From the IMG/VR virus record IMGVR_UViG_3300008255_000185, positions 1 through 47,073 of that record: 47,073 bases of DNA; one strand, given 5' to 3'. A model generated the notes under the pieces. It was not told the DNA's origin and made no database searches. It worked only from the letters and a program-made list of their open reading frames with translations. This document shows positions 17,003 through 25,527 of the stretch, in pieces; within the stretch, counting starts at the first letter, position 1; each line of letters begins with the position of its first letter. The stretch is from a virus (lineage: Duplodnaviria; Caudoviricetes). The position numbers were made by a program, and so were the translations under genes.

Positions 17003-17424
17003 CTGACCACCCTGCGCTCCCGCCATCAATCCACGCCGAGCTCGACGCCGCCTTCCGGATCGGACCGCTGATCTCCGAGGCCGCGGCCGCGCGGGTAATC
17101 GGCTTCTCAGCCGACAGCTTGCGCCGGGAGCGCGAAGACGGAAAGATCAGCTACCGCCTCCGCCGCAAGCGGCGCGTCTACGCCCGCGAGGACATCGAGG
17201 CCTATCTCGCGGAGGATCGCCAGTGTCAGTCTACCGGCCCAAGCGCAAGGACGGCTCGCTCAAATCGCCGTATTACCAGTTCGATTTCACGATCACCGTC
17301 CACGGCGAACGTCGTCGCGTTCACGGATCGACGGGGGAGCGAACTGCTGGAGCGGCTAAAAAATTCGAAGAGAGGGAACGCCGCAAGGCGCTCCGCGGCG
17401 GACCCAACGACCATCTCACACTGA
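16999..17424 (+). CDS. Excisionase-like HTH protein
   Basis: 'SEAAAARVIGFSADSLRR...YAREDIEAYL'; C-terminus overlaps the int start, as is common for xis/int pairs. Confidence 0.7.
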   Translation: MTDHPALPPSIHAELDAAFRIGPLISEAAAARVIGFSADSLRREREDGKISYRLRRKRRVYAREDIEAYLAEDRQCQSTGPSARTARSNRRITSSISRSPSTANVVAFTDRRGSELLERLKNSKRGNAARRSAADPTTISH

Positions 17425-19160
17425 CCGAGGCGATCGAGCGCTACGCCCTTGAGGTCCTGGCCGAAAAGCGCGGCGGCCTCGACACCGTCATCGGCCTGCA
17501 GCATTGCGAGCGCCTGTTCGGCGGCGATCGGCGACTGGCCAACATCACCGCCGGCGACATAGCCGAGGTCGTCCTGCGCCGCGCCGCCGAGACCAAGGGC
17601 ACGAAGAACCCGAAGCTCATCGCCGGCGCCACCGTCAACCGCAACATCATCGAGCCGATGCGCGCGCTGATGCACCGTGCATCACGGGTCTGGGGCGTCG
17701 GCTGCGAGCCGCACCGGATTGACTGGACGGCGCTGCGGCGGCGCGAGGCGCCGCCCCGAGATCGCGAGATGACCGAGGCCGAGGCCGAAGCATTCTGGCG
17801 CGAGCTGCGGCTGGACTTCCACCCCTTCACGGCCTTCCTCCTGTCGCGCGGCCTGCGCCTGCGGGCCGCGCTCGATCTGAAGAAGCTCGACGTCGACCTG
17901 CCCAACCGGCGCATCCGCGTATGGATCAAGGCCAAGGGCCTCACCTGGCTCGCGATCTCGGATTTCGATGCCGATCTGATCGCCGCCGAAATGAAGCGCT
18001 CGCCGCTGCCACAAGTCTGGACATACGAGGTGCAGCGCGGTCGGGAGAAAGGTCTGCGCCGTCCGCTCACGGCCGACGGCTATCGCCGCAGCGAGGAGAC
18101 GGCCCTGCGCCGTGCCGGCATCGAGGACTTCCGCCGCCACGACATGCGACACGACTTCGCGACGAAGCTCCTGCGCGCGACCCGGGATCTGCGGCTCGTC
18201 CAGGAGGCGATGAACCATTCCGACATCACCTCGACCATGCGCTATGCGCACGTTCTCGACGAGGATGTGAGGAAGGGATTGAATGCGATGCCCCGGAATA
18301 GTCCCGGAATGCTGACGCGGGCGAAGAAGCCTGAGACAACCGCGGCAATAAGGCCGCCGATCCACACGCCCCATTCGGAGATGAAATCAGGGTCCGTAGG
18401 AACCGCCATTGCCACAGGCCCCCTTGTCGTGAAGAATCCGGGTGAGGCTGTAGAGGGCGAGCATCGACAGCATGAAGTACGTCCAGATGCCGGTGGACAG
18501 GAGGCCGGTCAGGAAGAACGAGATGGCGAAGCCGGTCGTCAGCATCGCGTAGACGATGACGCCCATGAAGGCGCAGGCCGCGCGAACGGTCGATGTAACG
18601 GTCTCTTTCCGGCCATTGTACCAGAGCCCCAGCAGCCACGAGGCGCCGAGGATGGCGACGGCCGATCCGGTCCCGACCTCGCCTATCGCCCGCTCGAATG
18701 CGCGATAGCCGGGGCTCTCGAATGTCCGGCTCGGGTGAAGGAGCGCCAGCCCCCATCCGAACAGAAGCCATGCCGAGAACCATTCAGGCACCCGGCTATG
18801 GTTCTTCCGGCTGATGGAGATGAAGATCATAGGATCGCTCCCGGGATTGCCAGTTCCAGAAGGGCGAGAGCGGTGAGGAACACCACCACCGCCCAGAGCG
18901 CCCAGCGCCAGACAGTCAAGATTTGGCCTTCTCGATCTGCCTCTGCATGTGCGGCACCACCAGGTCAGCGATCTTGCTGTCCGACAGCCCAAGCTTCTTC
19001 ACCGTGTCCGGCACCGATGACTTCACGTAGGAGACGGCCGCACCTGCGGCGTCAGACGTCACCGCGGGCATGGTCCGCGAGCCCCCTGCCCGTGCGATGG
19101 CCGTCAGCGCCGCATTCTCCAGCGCCGATTGCAGGAGTTTCGCTCGCGCCTCATCCTTGA
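17223..19160 (+). CDS. int: Tyrosine integrase (recognisable domain ends about 18330; no stop until 19160)
   Basis: Catalytic R (GLR), HDMRH, NHSD, TMRY motifs; about 276-aa extension is antisense to lysis genes. Confidence 0.85.
   Translation: MSVYRPKRKDGSLKSPYYQFDFTITVHGERRRVHGSTGERTAGAAKKFEERERRKALRGGPNDHLTLTEAIERYALEVLAEKRGGLDTVIGLQHCERLFGGDRRLANITAGDIAEVVLRRAAETKGTKNPKLIAGATVNRNIIEPMRALMHRASRVWGVGCEPHRIDWTALRRREAPPRDREMTEAEAEAFWRELRLDFHPFTAFLLSRGLRLRAALDLKKLDVDLPNRRIRVWIKAKGLTWLAISDFDADLIAAEMKRSPLPQVWTYEVQRGREKGLRRPLTADGYRRSEETALRRAGIEDFRRHDMRHDFATKLLRATRDLRLVQEAMNHSDITSTMRYAHVLDEDVRKGLNAMPRNSPGMLTRAKKPETTAAIRPPIHTPHSEMKSGSVGTAIATGPLVVKNPGEAVEGEHRQHEVRPDAGGQEAGQEERDGEAGRQHRVDDDAHEGAGRANGRCNGLFPAIVPEPQQPRGAEDGDGRSGPDLAYRPLECAIAGALECPARVKERQPPSEQKPCREPFRHPAMVLPADGDEDHRIAPGIASSRRARAVRNTTTAQSAQRQTVKIWPSRSASACAAPPGQRSCCPTAQASSPCPAPMTSRRRRPHLRRQTSPRAWSASPLPVRWPSAPHSPAPIAGVSLAPHP
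18242..18409 (-). pseudogene. Apparently truncated membrane protein gene of the lysis cassette, fused to antisense int sequence
   Basis: AAGGGG RBS, MAVPTDPDFISEWGVWIGGLIAAVVSGFFAR, then reads into the int reverse strand. Confidence 0.55.
18292..18310 (+). repeat. Tandem CCCGGAAT direct repeat, candidate integrase arm-type sites
   Basis: CCCGGAAT at 18292-18299 and 18303-18310 (11-bp period) at the int 3' end. Confidence 0.5.
18387..18830 (-). CDS. Four-TM membrane protein, holin-like
   Basis: Four hydrophobic segments; GGGAG RBS; lysis cassette. Confidence 0.7.
   Translation of the reverse strand: MIFISISRKNHSRVPEWFSAWLLFGWGLALLHPSRTFESPGYRAFERAIGEVGTGSAVAILGASWLLGLWYNGRKETVTSTVRAACAFMGVIVYAMLTTGFAISFFLTGLLSTGIWTYFMLSMLALYSLTRILHDKGACGNGGSYGP
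18827..18919 (-). CDS. 30-aa TM peptide (MTVWRWALWAVVVFLTALALLELAIPGAIL)
   Basis: TTGA and ATGA overlaps at both ends; entirely hydrophobic. Confidence 0.5.
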   Translation of the reverse strand: MTVWRWALWAVVVFLTALALLELAIPGAIL

Positions 19161-19611: not shown

Positions 19612-20334
19612 CTAGAGGCGGGCGGCCTGGACATGCATCCAGTCGAAGTTCCGGGCGCGGCCGAGCGACAGCCACCCCTCGTCCTCCCAGCACTTCCAGA
19701 AAGGCAGTGCGTCCGCCTGAGAGAGACGGGCGCGCGGCGCCTTCCATTGCAGCTGATTGCGGATCGGATCGAAGTCGATCGCGATGCCCCACGAGTGCAT
19801 CGAATAGGCGGACCCGCCGCGCATCCGGCGCACGTTGAGCGAGCCCCCGAACAGGTGGAGGCCGAGGTCTTCGCGCTCGCGGGTGGAGTAGATGCCGGCG
19901 AGCCGCTGGAACACGCGCTCAGCCGATTTCGCGACCTTCTCGTGCATGGTGATCCGGCGGATGCGAACGCTCTTGTCCCACGCCAGGACCATGTCGAACG
20001 GGATGTCGACGCGGGTCTGCCGAGTGCCGACGGCGCCATAGAAGCTCGGCACGTTCCGCTGGCGCGGCCATGTATTTTTGACCATGCCGGGTGCCGCATC
20101 CAGTTCGGTATCGCGGTCGGGGAGATCCGCCATCGTCGCGGGCGATACAGAAGATGCGGAGGCCCGGAGCGCCTTGACCACCTTCGCGTCGGCCATGCCA
20201 TCGACGGTCAGGCCGTGGGCACGCTCGAATGCCTTGAGTGCGGCCAGCGTGACGGGACCGATGATGCCATCGATTGCCCCGCACGGGTATCCGTGGGCGG
20301 TCAGCCGGCTCTGCAGCCACTGTTCAAAGGTCAT
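19612..20334 (-). CDS. Endolysin: PG-binding domain + M15 peptidase
   Basis: 'DGIIGPVT..ALKAF...GLTVDG' PGBD; 'SMHSWGIAIDF' and 'DWMHVQ' Zn-peptidase motifs. Confidence 0.9.
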   Translation of the reverse strand: MTFEQWLQSRLTAHGYPCGAIDGIIGPVTLAALKAFERAHGLTVDGMADAKVVKALRASASSVSPATMADLPDRDTELDAAPGMVKNTWPRQRNVPSFYGAVGTRQTRVDIPFDMVLAWDKSVRIRRITMHEKVAKSAERVFQRLAGIYSTREREDLGLHLFGGSLNVRRMRGGSAYSMHSWGIAIDFDPIRNQLQWKAPRARLSQADALPFWKCWEDEGWLSLGRARNFDWMHVQAARL

Positions 20335-20355
20335 GGACCATCTCCGTTGCGGGCA

Positions 20356-20389
20356 TGAAAAAGCCCGCCGCGGCTGGACCGGGACGGGC
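20356..20389 (-). terminator. Intrinsic terminator upstream of the endolysin
   Basis: GCCCGTC...GGCGGGC followed by TTTTTCAT. Confidence 0.6.
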
Positions 20390-20431
20390 GTGGAATTGGC
20401 GTGCTGAGCAGCGTCCTGCTATGGACGATCC

Positions 20432-20516
20432 GTCACGGTGGCCGCCCTTCCAGGGCACGCCCCACACAGCCGTGACAGGCCCGGCGGTGGAACCCCGAAA
20501 GCGATACTGTCGGGCC
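20432..20516 (+). ncRNA. Two-hairpin sRNA unit 1
   Basis: TGCTATGG -10 with TA at -12/-11; GTCACGG..CCGTGAC, A, GGCCCGGCGG..CTGTCGGGCC. Confidence 0.65.
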
Positions 20517-20555
20517 AACTTCGCTCCCCGCACTTCGGCATGCTATGCAAGGCCA

Positions 20556-20630
20556 GTCGCAGCTTCGGATGGCTCCTCGCTGCGGTCAGGGCCGGCAGTG
20601 CCTTACGGAGGGCGTAGGCGCTGCCGGTCC
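20556..20630 (+). ncRNA. Two-hairpin sRNA unit 2
   Basis: TGCTATGC -10 at the same spacing; GTCGCAGC..GCTGCGGT, CA, GGGCCGGCAGTGCC..GGCGCTGCCGGTCC. Confidence 0.65.
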
Positions 20631-20726
20631 GCCATACTTGCTGCCTCAAATGGCAGGACGGGTAGTTTGTGAGCCATCCACCAAAGTGGCCGTCGCACGC
20701 GCGCCGAGGAATGATATTCTTCCGTA

Positions 20727-20796
20727 GTTGCGGCGGGTTACCCTCTCGGACGCAACAGGCCCGGCAGCCCTCTGCAAGGATCCCAGCTGCCGGGCC
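20727..20796 (+). ncRNA. Two-hairpin sRNA unit 3
   Basis: TGATATTCT -10 at the same spacing; GTTGCG..CGCAAC, A, GGCCCGGCAGC..GCTGCCGGGCC. Confidence 0.65.
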
Positions 20797-20835
20797 GCCC
20801 TCAATCGGACATTATGCGCGCGCTACCGTTGGGCA

Positions 20836-20907
20836 GTCGCGGTGTTGTGAGACTCGCCGAGACTAGGCCCGGCGGCTTGCGCTGTGCCCACTCCCCGCTG
20901 CCGGGCC
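20836..20907 (+). ncRNA. Two-hairpin sRNA unit 4
   Basis: CGCTACCGT -10 at the same spacing; GTCGCGG..CCGAGAC, TA, GGCCCGGCGGC..GCTGCCGGGCC. Confidence 0.65.
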
Positions 20908-20913
20908 GCTCTA

Positions 20914-21951
20914 TCAGGGGGCAGTGGACCGGCTGTCCGTTCCCGCACTTCCGGACGGCTGCTTCAGTTCAAGCGAAGTCGTCGCGCCACCCGAGCGGGT
21001 CGCCTTGTGGGTCACGCTGACGATCCGGTATGTCCCGTCGATACCCGGTCGAGCGCCTGTCAGAACGAACGTGCCCTCCGCCTGCGCGTCGACGGCAAGG
21101 TCGATCTCCACACTGCCGTCGCCAGCATCGCGCTCGCTGTCCGACTTCCGGCCGTTTGCCATGCCGGCGGCCTGGTCTTCGTCGGCCGCCGTCATCCCGC
21201 GAACTTCATCAACGACATCAAGCGCCGCGTCGCCGCTCTCGACTTCGACTTCCCTGCTCTTGAACTGCGCCGAAGCCCTATCGAAGAACTTGACCCTAGC
21301 CTTGGAATAGCGCGGGCGCCCCTTGGACGGATCAATGCTGACGCTGAGGACATTGCCGGGGATGGTCCCGGTGACAGTCGGCATGGCGCCGCCCGTCGCG
21401 CTGGTGCCCTGCCCCCGCTTGGCAAAGACAGCCCGGTCGTTCCGGATCTTGAACGTAGCGCCCAGCTCGCGCGCAAGCTTCTGGCCCCAGCCGAGGAAAG
21501 ACGCCCCATCCGGCGACCAGTATGGCCGGGCGATGCTGGCGAACTCCGGATCAACCACGATGCCAGAGAGGCCCGCCTTCTGTGCCGCCTTTCCTAGCGC
21601 GTCCTGAAGCGTTCCGTCGTCGAGGTGCCAGAGCTGCGCTTCCTTGGCCTTGCCGCGTGTATCGAAGCCCTTGGCGTTCACGTCGAGGATGCGGCCGCCG
21701 CCACGGGTCATCGTCCATGGCGTTGAGTCCACCACGCCCTCGAATACCTTCACGCCCTGGAGGTAGACGACCACGTTGGCGCCGACTGCCGGCAAGAGGC
21801 ACTGCCCGCCCGTATCGTCGAAGGTCAGGTTGCAGGTATCGCTGGCGACGCCGTCCTTGTCGACGACGGTGATCGCGTGAAGGTAGGGGCGCATGTTCGA
21901 CAACACGTCCCGCCCGTCGATCGTGACGCGCCATTCCACCGTCCAGGCCAT
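20914..21951 (-). CDS. Baseplate hub, P2 gpD (late control D) family
   Basis: 'ITVVDKDG..SD', 'LARELGATFKI', 'DGTYRIVSVTH'; order U-X-D. Confidence 0.88.
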   Translation of the reverse strand: MAWTVEWRVTIDGRDVLSNMRPYLHAITVVDKDGVASDTCNLTFDDTGGQCLLPAVGANVVVYLQGVKVFEGVVDSTPWTMTRGGGRILDVNAKGFDTRGKAKEAQLWHLDDGTLQDALGKAAQKAGLSGIVVDPEFASIARPYWSPDGASFLGWGQKLARELGATFKIRNDRAVFAKRGQGTSATGGAMPTVTGTIPGNVLSVSIDPSKGRPRYSKARVKFFDRASAQFKSREVEVESGDAALDVVDEVRGMTAADEDQAAGMANGRKSDSERDAGDGSVEIDLAVDAQAEGTFVLTGARPGIDGTYRIVSVTHKATRSGGATTSLELKQPSGSAGTDSRSTAP

Positions 21952-22621: not shown

Positions 22622-25167
22622 CAGAACCCCGGATGAGTGGTGTCGAACTGACCGCCGTCGATCGCATCCCGCACGGCCCGGCGAAACTCGTTGGCGATAT
22701 CGCTGGCGGTTGCGCTGGCGCCGCCCTGCACGATGATGTTGCCGAAGGTGATCGACTGCGAGCGTGGCTGATGAGCGCCACCGGATGACCCGACAGCAGG
22801 CAAGCCCTGTGGCGCTGGAATGTCGACGCCTCGGTTCATGCCGGCGATCATCGCCGCCGTATCGCGGGCGTTGATGATCCGACCATCGACGGGCGGGACG
22901 AAGAACTCCGGCCCGCGCTCGCCGACCCTATAGAGCGAGTTGCCCGAGACAGGGCCGCCGGTCGCTCTGCCTGGCACATCACCCGGCATGATCGGCTGAA
23001 GCGGATTGGCGTTGGCCGACCCAGCGCCCGCTGCCGTCGATCCGAACGCGCCAATGGACGAAACGGCTCGGCTCGCGCGACGGACCAGACCTTCAATTGC
23101 GGTGACCGCCGATCGAATGCCGTCCACAAGCGCGTTGAACGCCGCGATGATGTTCTCGAAGCTGGGCGCTGGGATCGTCAGGTTAGCGAAGAAGTCGATC
23201 AGCGGCTGAAGTGCAGCGCGAACCTGACCGGGGAATGCTGCAATGTCGGCAACAAACCCGCCGATGCTCTCGCCAATCGAGACGCCGAACGCGCGCCAGG
23301 ATGCAGCCGAAGCGTCGATCGGGCCGGTGATCCTGTTGAACCATCCGAACAGCGTCTCGACAGCCGACGACACCGTGTCGATGATTGCCCCCGCGCCGGG
23401 GAAAGCATTGCGGATACCCTCGCCGATGCCCCGGAACATCTCCGCGATGCCGGACCAGTTCTGATAGATCCACGCACCCGCCATGGCGATGCCGACAAGG
23501 ATGGCGCCGATGCCAGTGGAGATCAGGGCGATCTTGAGCGCCTTGCTCGCAGCCGTGACCAGCCGCATGGGAACAAGCGTTGATGCCAACGCTGCCGCAT
23601 AGCGCCGGAATGATCCACCTGCACCAGTGATGGCACCAGACGCCGCAGTCATGCCTGCTGTCATCTGACGGGATGCGTTGGCATTGGCCAGCGCGGTCGC
23701 CGACATGCCAGCGATCATGGCCTTGGACGCATCAGCCGCCTTGCCTGCCGACAGCGCCGCCGCGTTCGCCATGGAGAACCCGCTGAACGCAGCGCGGCCC
23801 GCAACCTTTGTCCGAGTGCCGAAGATCGACATGGCGCCGGTGGCCGCAGCAACCGCGGCCCCCACGCCTTTCAGTCCGGCGATGGCCGTAGAGAGATACG
23901 CTCCCCGCATCCAGAAGAAGCTCCACTGCGCAGCAATGGCAGCGATGCGGAGACCGACGAGACCGGCAGTAAGCGCGACGACCGTGGAAGTCAGGCGCGG
24001 GTTGGCGTCAGCGAAACGGGCAATGGCGAGGGCGACCGGGCCAAGCGCATCCATGATGCCATTCAGTGCGGGAAGCAGCGAGGATCCGATGGCAATGCCG
24101 GCGGCTGTGACCTTGTTCGAAAACAACTGCATCGAGTTGGCGGTCGTCTCTGAGCGCGTCTCGAATTCGCGCTGTGACGATCCGAGATACTTCGCCTGGT
24201 CCGCGACGCTGCCCAGCGCCTTGTCGTAGAGCTCGATCTGCGTCACCAGGGGCGCAAGCGCGCGGGCTTCGTCGCCGAAGATTTCGGACAGCGTGTTGGC
24301 CCGAAGATGCGACGGCAACTCATTGATCCGCACGATGACATCGCGCAGCGTTCCAACCGCGTCTTCATTGAACCGCTTGGCGACATCCGTTGCGCTCAAT
24401 CCAAGAGCGAAGAATGCGTCCTTTTGCCGAGTGGAGGCAGACGCTCCTTTCGCCAGCGCACGCCCGACGTTCCGAAATGACGTCGCCGCTACTTCTGACT
24501 GAGCTCCGGCTGCGATCATTGCGGAGCCGATGGCAGCGGTCTCAGTTGCTGTGAAGCCATAATATTCGCCGGTTGCGGCGACCGTCCTCATGAACGCGAC
24601 AATCTTCGGGGCGGACGACGCCGAAGTGTTCGACAGATGGTTGATTGCGTCGGCCAAAACTCCCGTCTCTTCCACGGATAGGTTCAGCTGCGTCTTGATC
24701 TCGGCCAGCGCCTGACCGACTTCGCCCGCTGTCATGTCGAACGCGACGCCAACCTTCGCCGCGATCTCGGTAAATGCCAGCAGCTCATTGCCAGCCATAC
24801 CCGCCTGTCCTGCGGCCGCGACGATGTTTGCAATACCGTTGGCAGCGATCGGGATGCGGGTGGACATCTCAATGATGTCGGCCCCCATCTGCTTGAAGGC
24901 TTGCGGTGTCTCAAAGTCGACGACCTTGCGGACGTCGGCCATGGCGCTCTCGAACTCCACAGCCGCCATGATCGGCCCGCGAATTGCGCGGTAGAGCCCA
25001 TAGCCGACCGCCGTGACCTCGACCATCCGGCCGCGCATGGCATCGAGACGGCGGTTGTTCGCCTCAAGCTTCCCCTGCATGGTTGCCACGGACGCAGCGA
25101 TGCCGCGCGCCGGTGCCGTCACCTTGTCGATCAGGCTCAGTATCAGGGAGCTGGTGAGTGTAGCCAT
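22621..25167 (-). CDS. Tape measure protein (TP901 core)
   Basis: 848 aa, Ala-rich, 'FESAMADVRKVVDF', C-terminal 'RATGGPV...VGERGPE'. Confidence 0.92.
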   Translation of the reverse strand: MATLTSSLILSLIDKVTAPARGIAASVATMQGKLEANNRRLDAMRGRMVEVTAVGYGLYRAIRGPIMAAVEFESAMADVRKVVDFETPQAFKQMGADIIEMSTRIPIAANGIANIVAAAGQAGMAGNELLAFTEIAAKVGVAFDMTAGEVGQALAEIKTQLNLSVEETGVLADAINHLSNTSASSAPKIVAFMRTVAATGEYYGFTATETAAIGSAMIAAGAQSEVAATSFRNVGRALAKGASASTRQKDAFFALGLSATDVAKRFNEDAVGTLRDVIVRINELPSHLRANTLSEIFGDEARALAPLVTQIELYDKALGSVADQAKYLGSSQREFETRSETTANSMQLFSNKVTAAGIAIGSSLLPALNGIMDALGPVALAIARFADANPRLTSTVVALTAGLVGLRIAAIAAQWSFFWMRGAYLSTAIAGLKGVGAAVAAATGAMSIFGTRTKVAGRAAFSGFSMANAAALSAGKAADASKAMIAGMSATALANANASRQMTAGMTAASGAITGAGGSFRRYAAALASTLVPMRLVTAASKALKIALISTGIGAILVGIAMAGAWIYQNWSGIAEMFRGIGEGIRNAFPGAGAIIDTVSSAVETLFGWFNRITGPIDASAASWRAFGVSIGESIGGFVADIAAFPGQVRAALQPLIDFFANLTIPAPSFENIIAAFNALVDGIRSAVTAIEGLVRRASRAVSSIGAFGSTAAGAGSANANPLQPIMPGDVPGRATGGPVSGNSLYRVGERGPEFFVPPVDGRIINARDTAAMIAGMNRGVDIPAPQGLPAVGSSGGAHQPRSQSITFGNIIVQGGASATASDIANEFRRAVRDAIDGGQFDTTHPGF

Positions 25168-25179
25168 GTTTCCCCCAGA

Positions 25180-25207
25180 TTGACGACGCCGCAGCTATCG
25201 CTAACAT
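25180..25207 (+). promoter_or_regulatory. Promoter of the antisense moron
   Basis: TTGACG-N16-TAACAT followed by GGAGG RBS. Confidence 0.6.
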
Positions 25208-25233
25208 CCGGCTGGAAAGCACCGGAGGTAAGA

Positions 25234-25527
25234 ATGTCAAGAGTTGTTCGAACGGAAGTCCGAAAGCGCGGGTTCTTCGGGAAGCTGATGAAGTGGTCCT
25301 TCATCCTCTTCAATTTGCTGATGATCTACTTTGTGATCCAAGGCGCAGTCGGCATCAGCGATGGAGCGAAGTCGTTGACGACCGACTACGAAAAAGCCGG
25401 ATATGGCACCGGCGCAGTAATAGGCTTTGGCCTAATGCTTTTCGTGTGGGTGGCAGGCGATGTCATCCTCGGCCTGATGGTCATGTTCACCAGGGGAAAG
25501 ACGACATACATCGAGACTGCCGAATAG
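25234..25527 (+). CDS. Two-TM membrane moron protein (candidate superinfection exclusion)
   Basis: GGAGG RBS, lower GC, 'RKRGFFGK..KW' then two TMs; opposite strand within the tail operon. Confidence 0.8.
   Translation: MSRVVRTEVRKRGFFGKLMKWSFILFNLLMIYFVIQGAVGISDGAKSLTTDYEKAGYGTGAVIGFGLMLFVWVAGDVILGLMVMFTRGKTTYIETAE

Follow-up and report, generated by a model that had tools for sequence, protein, structure and literature searches.

A four-unit RNA array between the gpD and endolysin genes

The window analysed here, 47,073 nt of IMG/VR record IMGVR_UViG_3300008255_000185, is a whole temperate myophage, with recognisable terminase, portal, capsid, sheath, baseplate, repressor, integrase and primase genes. 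Its integrase is nearest to those of Jiella pelagia (78%) and Aurantimonas endophytica (77%), and the nearest prophages by gpD are found in Pararhizobium, Terrihabitans and Aurantimonas/Aureimonas. Given the integrase values and the gpD kinship, the host is probably a Jiella/Aurantimonas-type bacterium. The integrase frame (17223-19160, +) spans 645 codons, compared to ∼370 aa in close homologs, and its extension overlaps lysis-region genes on the opposite strand. Another + strand ORF (24901-25527), with a C-terminal part similar to PHROG 6586, interrupts the tail operon beside the tape measure gene and is likely a second moron.

A gap of 579 nt separates the gpD and endolysin genes. The four two-hairpin units that a preliminary description had placed in this gap are all present, each consisting on the + strand of two hairpins joined by a linker of 1–2 nt (Table 1). 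Flanked only by gpD and the endolysin, they have no dedicated effector gene next to them, as had been noted. They lie on the + strand between − strand genes and hence antisense to the late operon. In related phages the same junction is often short, and many relatives carry unrelated inserts on the opposite strand there, which identifies it as a moron site, also in line with the earlier account. In phage L144 the junction (L144:3250-3720, −) is filled by about six strong hairpins, several of them U-tailed, which look like an unrelated small-RNA cluster at the same site.

Table 1. Features of the phage gpD–endolysin junction
Feature	Coordinates	Strand	Basis or remarks
Endolysin (PG-binding + M15 peptidase), flanking gene	19612..20334	−	PHROG 17001, Pfam
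Terminator-like hairpin + T5, just before endolysin start	20358..20389	− (late strand)	Sequence
Predicted extended −10 of unit 1, TGn-TATGGA	20417..20425	+	Sequence; offset common to all four units
RNA unit 1	20432..20518	+	Fold z −4.1; model R2 47.8 bits (unit 1 in R2 training set)
Unit 1 hairpin 1	Stem 20432-20438/20470-20476	+	Long branched loop; then linker A
Unit 1 hairpin 2, with C-run loop	20478-20516	+	
Predicted extended −10 of unit 2, TGn-TATGCA	20541..20549	+	Sequence
RNA unit 2	20556..20632	+	Fold z −4.2
Spacer between units 2 and 3, longer, weakly folded	20633..20711	.	Fold z −0.5 (+), 0.75 (−)
Predicted extended −10 of unit 3, TGn-TATTCT	20712..20720	+	Sequence
RNA unit 3	20727..20798	+	Fold z −3.2; model R1 (untrained on unit 3) 34.9 bits
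Spacer with unit 4 −10 element (TACCGT, 20824-20829)	20799..20835	+	Kept in related phages beside other units
RNA unit 4, ortholog of last L001 unit	20836..20909	+	Fold z −1.5 (weak)
gpD tail protein (late control D), flanking gene	20914..21951	−	PHROG 52, named relatives

The units had been read as + strand RNAs, and fold stability supports this in part. Units 1 to 3 fold well on that strand; unit 4 does so weakly, and unit 2 also folds well in reverse (− strand z of 0.0, −5.3, −1.6 and −0.5 for units 1 to 4). The reported bias towards G-U wobbles on the + strand is evident in the core stems, where 72 pairs comprise 63 Watson-Crick, 7 G-U, 0 A-C and 2 mismatched pairs; the 7 G-U against no A-C argue for + as the sense strand. 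The scaffold motif GGSCCGGCRG, proposed to be conserved, has seven exact matches in the 47 kb, six of them inside the array. A scan of the phage against Rfam 15 gave no match at gathering, consistent with the earlier failure to recognise a family; the gap itself gave four weak matches, all far below threshold.

The best of these weak matches is that of the terminator-like hairpin before the endolysin to Rfam c4-a1b1 (15.5 bits, compared to a gathering threshold of 46.7). Similar elements occur in L001, L026, L034 and L144; the hairpin is general to these phages and probably separate from the RNA array.

Units turn over among related phages

The closest relative, IMG/VR locus L001 (gpD 91%), has an array of three units at this junction, with different loops and combined differently. 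The spacer between units 3 and 4 matches L001 at 85% over 59 nt, and unit 4 matches the last L001 unit at 78% over 68 nt. These two units have in common an 8-nt loop-2 core, GTGCCCAC (shuffle P = 0.006, uncorrected, for the best of the pairs listed). For the longer spacer between units 2 and 3, we found no homolog and no block in common with L001. Contigs from DNA runs X2 and X6 (low depth, with 30-nt loose ends) place the unit 3–4 spacer beside other flanking units. Together, the L001 and X2/X6 arrangements show that units are gained, lost and re-paired while unit types keep their loop core. L001 also has an inserted 43-aa ORF rich in lysine, which separates the endolysin leader from the first RNA unit (L001:3730-3860, −).

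Unit number and loops had been expected to vary at the gpD–lysis junction. L001 agrees with this expectation. When 142 gpD-flank loci (81 + 61, after exclusion of 19 of 80 viral loci as apparent duplicates) were searched with model R1, 141 were without an array, L001 being the sole exception. A search of IMG/VR with a two-unit pattern returned nothing. On other viral contigs, a single unit lies in the tail module of L469 and a unit pair in L480.

Two further sets of elements were noted in passing. The Aurantimonas sp. VKM B-3413 prophage has three two-hairpin units at its gpD–lysin junction (L026:6090-6500, −); their second stem is similar (GGCYCGG), they are U-tailed, and model R3 does not score them at E ≤ 1. 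They may form a distantly related sister family. Another RNA-like element, at L165:2501-2620 (−) and also in L163, L166, L167, L190 and L325, has three hairpins, of which the first has a CU-rich loop and the last the same stem. In L165 it lies between the terminase and portal genes of a phage-like element, ahead of a 238-aa gene.

The phage units belong to a multicopy Mesorhizobium family

Judged by sequence and predicted fold, the four phage units are members of an uncatalogued RNA family that is multicopy in Mesorhizobium. The exact motif occurs at 111 places in 64 of 201 genomes of this genus, compared to one for the reversed control. These data do not support the initial picture of a phage-specific system. 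Across 401 genomes of the taxonomic family the motif was present in three, two of which were again Mesorhizobium. Model R3 gave 19 matches in genome G042, 17 of them at E < 0.02. When 151 genomes of the order were searched with R3 (34 candidates scored per genome), strong matches were confined to two Mesorhizobium genomes (6 and 4), and two weak matches appeared chance-like on inspection. A looser stem pattern, run over 151 relatives of genome G002, matched at the control level. Named copies lie on pMLb of M. japonicum MAFF 303099 and on plasmids of Mesorhizobium strains AR02 and B1-1-8.

A pattern scan of metagenomes yielded 119 loci, most of them explained by chance matches within coding DNA. 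Among them, L192/L254 and L264 are real solitary units in bacterial-looking DNA, and L226 is the phage itself. Several bacterial loci have clusters of two or three units. The neighbours are varied small-gene islands (DUF768, DUF982, DUF3606, SRAP, DNA ligase), and we found no constant partner gene among 67 ORFs from 30 bacterial loci. A tRNA gene lies within 1.5 kb of the unit in 5 of 20 loci. No Rfam family covered a unit at gathering in 20 loci, nor at E ≤ 5 in 20 more.

The 201 Mesorhizobium genomes contain no close relative of the phage, their gpD matches being 38–41% in seven genomes. In Jiella/Aurantimonas, no chromosomal copies were seen (0 of 41) in a weak search that had no positive control. 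Unannotated sRNAs of 65–85 nt (MH_s12, MH_s36 and MH_s37) are described for M. huakuii 7653R (PMC5596092), and one of these may be a family member. The transcript table of that study, which gives coordinates only, holds none of the family motifs as text, and we found no unit copies on the 7653R plasmids.

One stem covaries and the other is nearly invariant

The preliminary description had predicted covariation in homologs, and this was found. In an alignment of nine distinct units, 96% of the cells are paired and 9 of 19 pairs have two-sided changes, a level that none of 500 shuffles reached. The corresponding figures for 65 distinct rows are 97.7% and 12 of 19. Both alignments were fitted to the model and so lean towards it, and the larger one consists of related sequences and includes a few weak or reverse-strand rows. 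Within the 65 rows, stem 1 shows covariation in all eight pairs. Stem 2, by contrast, is nearly invariant: nine of its first ten pairs are of one pair type, or a wobble of it, in nearly all rows. One pair is split almost evenly between G-C (33) and G-U (32).

For the counts that follow we used 63 units (7 phage, 56 bacterial), obtained after removal of one weak match (L310:88-149) and of identical rows. The sense strand folds better in all 7 phage units and in 46 of the 56 bacterial ones (53/63 in all).

The linker region (phage 20473-20487) resembles the core of the Mesorhizobium SRP RNA (L466:1501-1597), with 13 of 15 nt matching in 6 of 63 units. Shuffled SRP sequences reached a maximum of 12 in 60 tries against one unit, and the pairing of the linker differs from that in SRP RNA. 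The resemblance is probably a coincidence or a relic.

Each unit carries its own predicted promoter

The units had been described as separately promoted, with a −10-like TA at a fixed distance. A TA does lie exactly 12 nt before the first G in all four phage units and is preceded by TGn in three. With a TA frequency of 0.024 in the gap, four at one offset would arise by chance with a probability of ∼3e-7 per offset. More broadly, TGnTA is found within 28 nt upstream of 6/7 phage and 24/56 bacterial units, compared to 0/7 and 7/56 in windows 30 nt farther up, and none was seen on the opposite strand downstream of the units. These data bear out predicted promoters for separate + strand RNA genes. 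A strict sigma-70 scan of 20000-21300 detected neither a promoter nor a terminator; in Alphaproteobacteria, −35 and −7 positions are often weak.

Comparison of copies delimits the unit. In 440 of 533 aligned unit pairs, the alignment stops no more than 20 nt past the second stem. Among the 68 pairs in which it extends 40–200 nt upstream and does not extend downstream, most reach 50–70 nt. Because homology stops after stem 2 and reaches 50–70 nt upstream, the mobile unit is a predicted promoter plus an RNA. The copies share an upstream element, GGAAA...TGC...GCTAAT. In many Mesorhizobium units (e.g. L295, L310 and L319), GGAAA lies ∼30 nt before a partly palindromic GCTAAT-W-TTAG, which suggests an unknown transcription factor common to these predicted promoters. 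T-rich tails are confined to 12 of 63 units, and most units therefore lack the usual Hfq handle; exceptions of this kind are noted in Caulobacter (PMC12559287).

These features bear on the idea that the units are idle as free RNAs, being either near-neutral repeats or elements that work at the DNA level (REP/MITE-like, or insulators made of a promoter and a hairpin), and have spread in accessory DNA. The copies are indeed dispersed, multicopy and restricted to one genus, and they sit in accessory islands, with tRNA genes, IS elements and small genes nearby. However, the upstream element is conserved on one side only, the copies end right after stem 2, and no terminal inverted repeats were seen by eye on aligned copies. 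REP/MITE repeats have terminal inverted repeats or tagged palindromes and no promoter of their own. The strand-specific G-U pairs, the compensatory changes and an unpaired loop motif that is conserved (see below) argue for selection on an RNA, and we consider inert repeats distinctly unlikely. What the sequences show is a structured, strand-specific, multicopy family of putative RNA genes, each with a predicted promoter and a conserved exposed C-run.

A C-run is conserved in loop 2

The loops were thought to be freely variable. They do differ between units and between relatives; loop 2, however, keeps a C-run. In the bacterial units it reads CCCAA in 47 of 56 (shuffle mean 6.8), and 6 of 7 phage units have CCC (shuffle P = 0.011) and 4 of 7 CCCA (P = 0.002). 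The exception is unit 2, with the apex GAGGG. The C-run is predicted to be exposed, with a mean unpaired probability of 0.91 in phage and 0.86 in bacterial units, and one subfamily repeats the motif CCCAAC inside a single loop. Of the 164 intergenic CCCAAC sites in the genome as a whole, 39 lie in hairpins, a proportion like that of control hexamers. In L311 and L317, a divergent hairpin on the opposite strand, ∼60–110 nt upstream of the unit, has another stem and the same C-run/AAC loop motif.

Tracts resembling the anti-SD sequence, to which attention had been drawn, are present in the phage loops without being enriched: CTCC occurs in 1/7 loop-1 and 1/7 loop-2 phage sequences, which is the shuffle level.

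We then looked for targets of the loops. None of the eight phage loops paired with 51 phage translation-start regions better than shuffles did, and the same loops gave nothing above shuffles or chance against the endolysin leader (P = 0.2–0.97) or the rest of the phage genome. Seven loop-2 sequences, the phage's four among them, were compared with 1282 Mesorhizobium leaders, and none beat its eight shuffles; these leaders derive from our own script's gene calls on 1.6 of the 6.7 Mb of genome G008, which is not the phage's likely host. The earlier claim of targeting loops thus gained no support from pairing. Likewise, the full seed complement GTTGGG occurs three times at −20 to −6 of the 1282 genes (2.8 expected). 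The leader test itself works, because the control motifs are enriched in the same interval (GGAG, 417 versus 65 expected; TGGGAG, 18 versus 2.5). G-runs are also enriched there (GGGG, 97 versus 43 expected; GGGGA, 59 versus 10), and a CCCC seed could therefore reach a subset of ribosome-binding sites. Such pairing does not account for the AAC extension.

The near-invariance of stem 2 fits protein recognition better than a plain terminator. In one alternative reading, a host RNA-binding protein recognises stem 2 and the C-run, and the units serve it as decoys or handles: the many copies would titrate or recruit the protein, and the phage array would raise the dose or retune it. That stem 2 hardly changes while stem 1 covaries freely would be expected in such a case, as would the repeated CCCAAC of one subfamily, the high copy number, the usual lack of a U-tail and the null target searches. 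On the other hand, no candidate protein emerged and the neighbouring genes vary; recent duplication would also yield an invariant stem; and orthologous phage units keep distinct loop cores, which a decoy for a single protein would not need. Because stem 2 hardly varies, U-tails are mostly lacking and the target searches gave no signal, this reading is a serious rival to base-pairing and the main one, though the less likely of the two.

Comparison with known RNA systems

One close parallel is with LhrC1-5 of Listeria monocytogenes, which PMC4132741 describes as multicopy two-stem-loop sRNAs with their own promoters and a shared upstream element. Their C-rich loop motifs, including that of the terminator loop in the last hairpin, mediate pairing, and the array units share such C-rich loops. 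In contrast to the array, LhrC copies are almost identical, 111–114 nt long, chromosomal and found in Firmicutes, and their motif is UCCC. The units described here are 60–90 nt long, with diverged loops, CCC(C)AA and mostly no U-tail, and are phage-borne and alphaproteobacterial; we claim no homology. Two traits of sibling base-pairing sRNAs are nonetheless seen: paralogous genes, each with its own predicted promoter, and a conserved, accessible C-rich loop motif.

A second parallel is with the anti-sRNAs AgvB and AsxR of EHEC prophages (PMC4104026), short phage-encoded RNAs with conserved 3′ and variable 5′ parts, located at a lambdoid moron site near late and lysis genes. The array likewise combines a moron position in the late/lysis region with conserved and variable parts. 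AgvB and AsxR are 51–60 nt long and Hfq-bound, with a single-stranded variable 5′ end and one member per site on different prophages, whereas here four tandem units have two loops each and their own predicted promoters.

Multicopy hairpin sRNAs with pyrimidine-rich loops and variable-number clusters are familiar in Rhizobiales, examples being the cuckoo/alpha-r14 RNAs (CcsR, RSs0680; PMC4615179) and AbcR/alpha-r15 (PMC3346310). Cuckoo RNAs are described as having CCUCCUCCC loops on variable stems, and their clusters can be co-transcribed with a small gene (PMC4615179). The units differ in having a conserved second stem, a predicted promoter per copy and CTCC in only 1/56 loop-2 sequences. We accordingly rejected cuckoo, defined by CCUCCUCCC in each hairpin loop: CCTCC occurs in 0/56 loop-2 and 3/56 loop-1 bacterial sequences and in 0/7 phage sequences for both loops. 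AbcR/alpha-r15 and suhB/alpha-r8, with an anti-SD seed and a U-tailed terminator, were rejected on the lack of an Rfam match and the T-rich tail in just 12/63 units. The alpha-r8/suhB RNAs SisA-D are also dispersed paralogous alphaproteobacterial sRNAs, described as having a single-stranded UUUCCUCCCU and a Rho-independent terminator (PMC12559287), both of which the array units lack. The family thus matches no entry of Rfam 15 and lacks the motifs by which cuckoo, AbcR and alpha-r8 are defined.

A phage-borne tandem array in which the scaffold is constant and the loops change from one close relative to the next also calls to mind the guides of an RNA-guided effector (of the TIGR, bridge or CRISPR kind), with loops that would serve as spacers against rival phages or host DNA. 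TIGR-Tas systems share the tandem stem-loop units with variable loop content; as described, they have two 8–12-nt spacers between box C/D motifs and an adjoining Nop-domain gene (PMC12045711). The array has neither. Its flanks are gpD and the endolysin, its units have separate predicted promoters, no constant partner was found in the 30 bacterial loci, and the loops vary from ∼12 to 30 nt with no paired box C/D visible by eye on the alignments; TIGR-Tas was rejected on these grounds. More generally, no Nop, Cas, TnpB or IS110-type match was obtained for 73 phage ORFs against PHROGs or 30 against Pfam (several ORFs are unannotated), and family members are mostly solitary promoter-bearing genes. 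No exact copy of the 20-nt second loop of unit 4 was found in IMG/VR, and the gap as a whole has no meaningful match in 50,697 phage records. Guide RNAs are thus a very improbable explanation.

The units could instead act in cis, as C4/CI-type antisense immunity RNAs against the lysis leader or phage genes, or as type I antitoxins. C4/CI RNAs are defined by loops complementary to sites in the phage's own transcripts, and type I systems of the Sib/Ibs kind by a small hydrophobic ORF on the opposite strand. The weak c4-a1b1 match in the endolysin leader lies beside the array, and units that run antisense to the late transcript are bound to interfere with it to some degree. Yet no loop pairs with the endolysin leader above shuffles or matches the phage genome exactly above chance, and for none of the 63 units does the opposite strand contain, within 250 nt, a small hydrophobic ORF preceded by an SD. 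The leader hairpin also occurs in relatives that have no array, and no Rfam C4 family matches at threshold. We give this explanation very little weight.

In the openly accessible articles searched on Mesorhizobium and Rhizobiales sRNA families and on phage sRNA clusters, we found no account of these RNAs, and searching for motif strings gave nothing relevant among the best 30 of 2,339 matches. Nor did we find there a description of a phage moron in which paralogs of a multicopy bacterial family, each self-promoted, stand in tandem with diversified loops.

Proposed mechanism and implications

We propose, with roughly even confidence, that the units are sibling sRNAs expressed in the lysogen, whose exposed loops pair with host mRNAs or host small RNAs. 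Each unit would be transcribed from its own predicted promoter; that the array lies at a moron site and runs antisense to the late operon suggests expression during lysogeny. Transcripts would end at the second stem, which is very stable, instead of at a U-tailed terminator. The loops would act in trans on G-rich stretches of host mRNAs or sRNAs, with the loop-2 C-run as seed. In this scheme the phage would have taken up a host-type sibling-sRNA cassette and expanded it in tandem, after which the loops diverged, so that each copy would reach a different set of targets.

The case for loop-mediated pairing is drawn from the analogy with LhrC and the EHEC anti-sRNAs and from the distinct loop cores that orthologous units retain. 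Loop-mediated sRNA–sRNA sponging in Alphaproteobacteria is illustrated by the sponge CrfA (PMC12559287). Counting against base-pairing are the lack of a target signal, the scarcity of T-rich tails, the near-invariant second stem, the absence of a C-run from unit 2, and the fact that no chromosomal copies were seen by the weak search of the likely host group. Another version, to which we assign a small probability, is that the second stem and C-run form a loading handle for an unknown host protein, which the remaining loop sequence would program. If so, Mesorhizobium would carry dispersed guide-like RNAs for a chromosomal effector, and temperate phages would bring in reprogrammed arrays that redirect or jam it.

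These findings add an abundant and apparently overlooked RNA family to Mesorhizobium, a well-studied legume symbiont, with up to ∼17 copies per genome. The named copy on pMLb makes the family directly testable in M. japonicum MAFF 303099. They also reveal a temperate phage that carries, at a moron site, a tandem and diversified array of this Mesorhizobium-type cassette, whose units have been exchanged among related phages. Should the loops determine the targets, phages would be expanding and retargeting a riboregulator of host type; should a protein bind the constant stem, the family would point to a new RNA–protein system.
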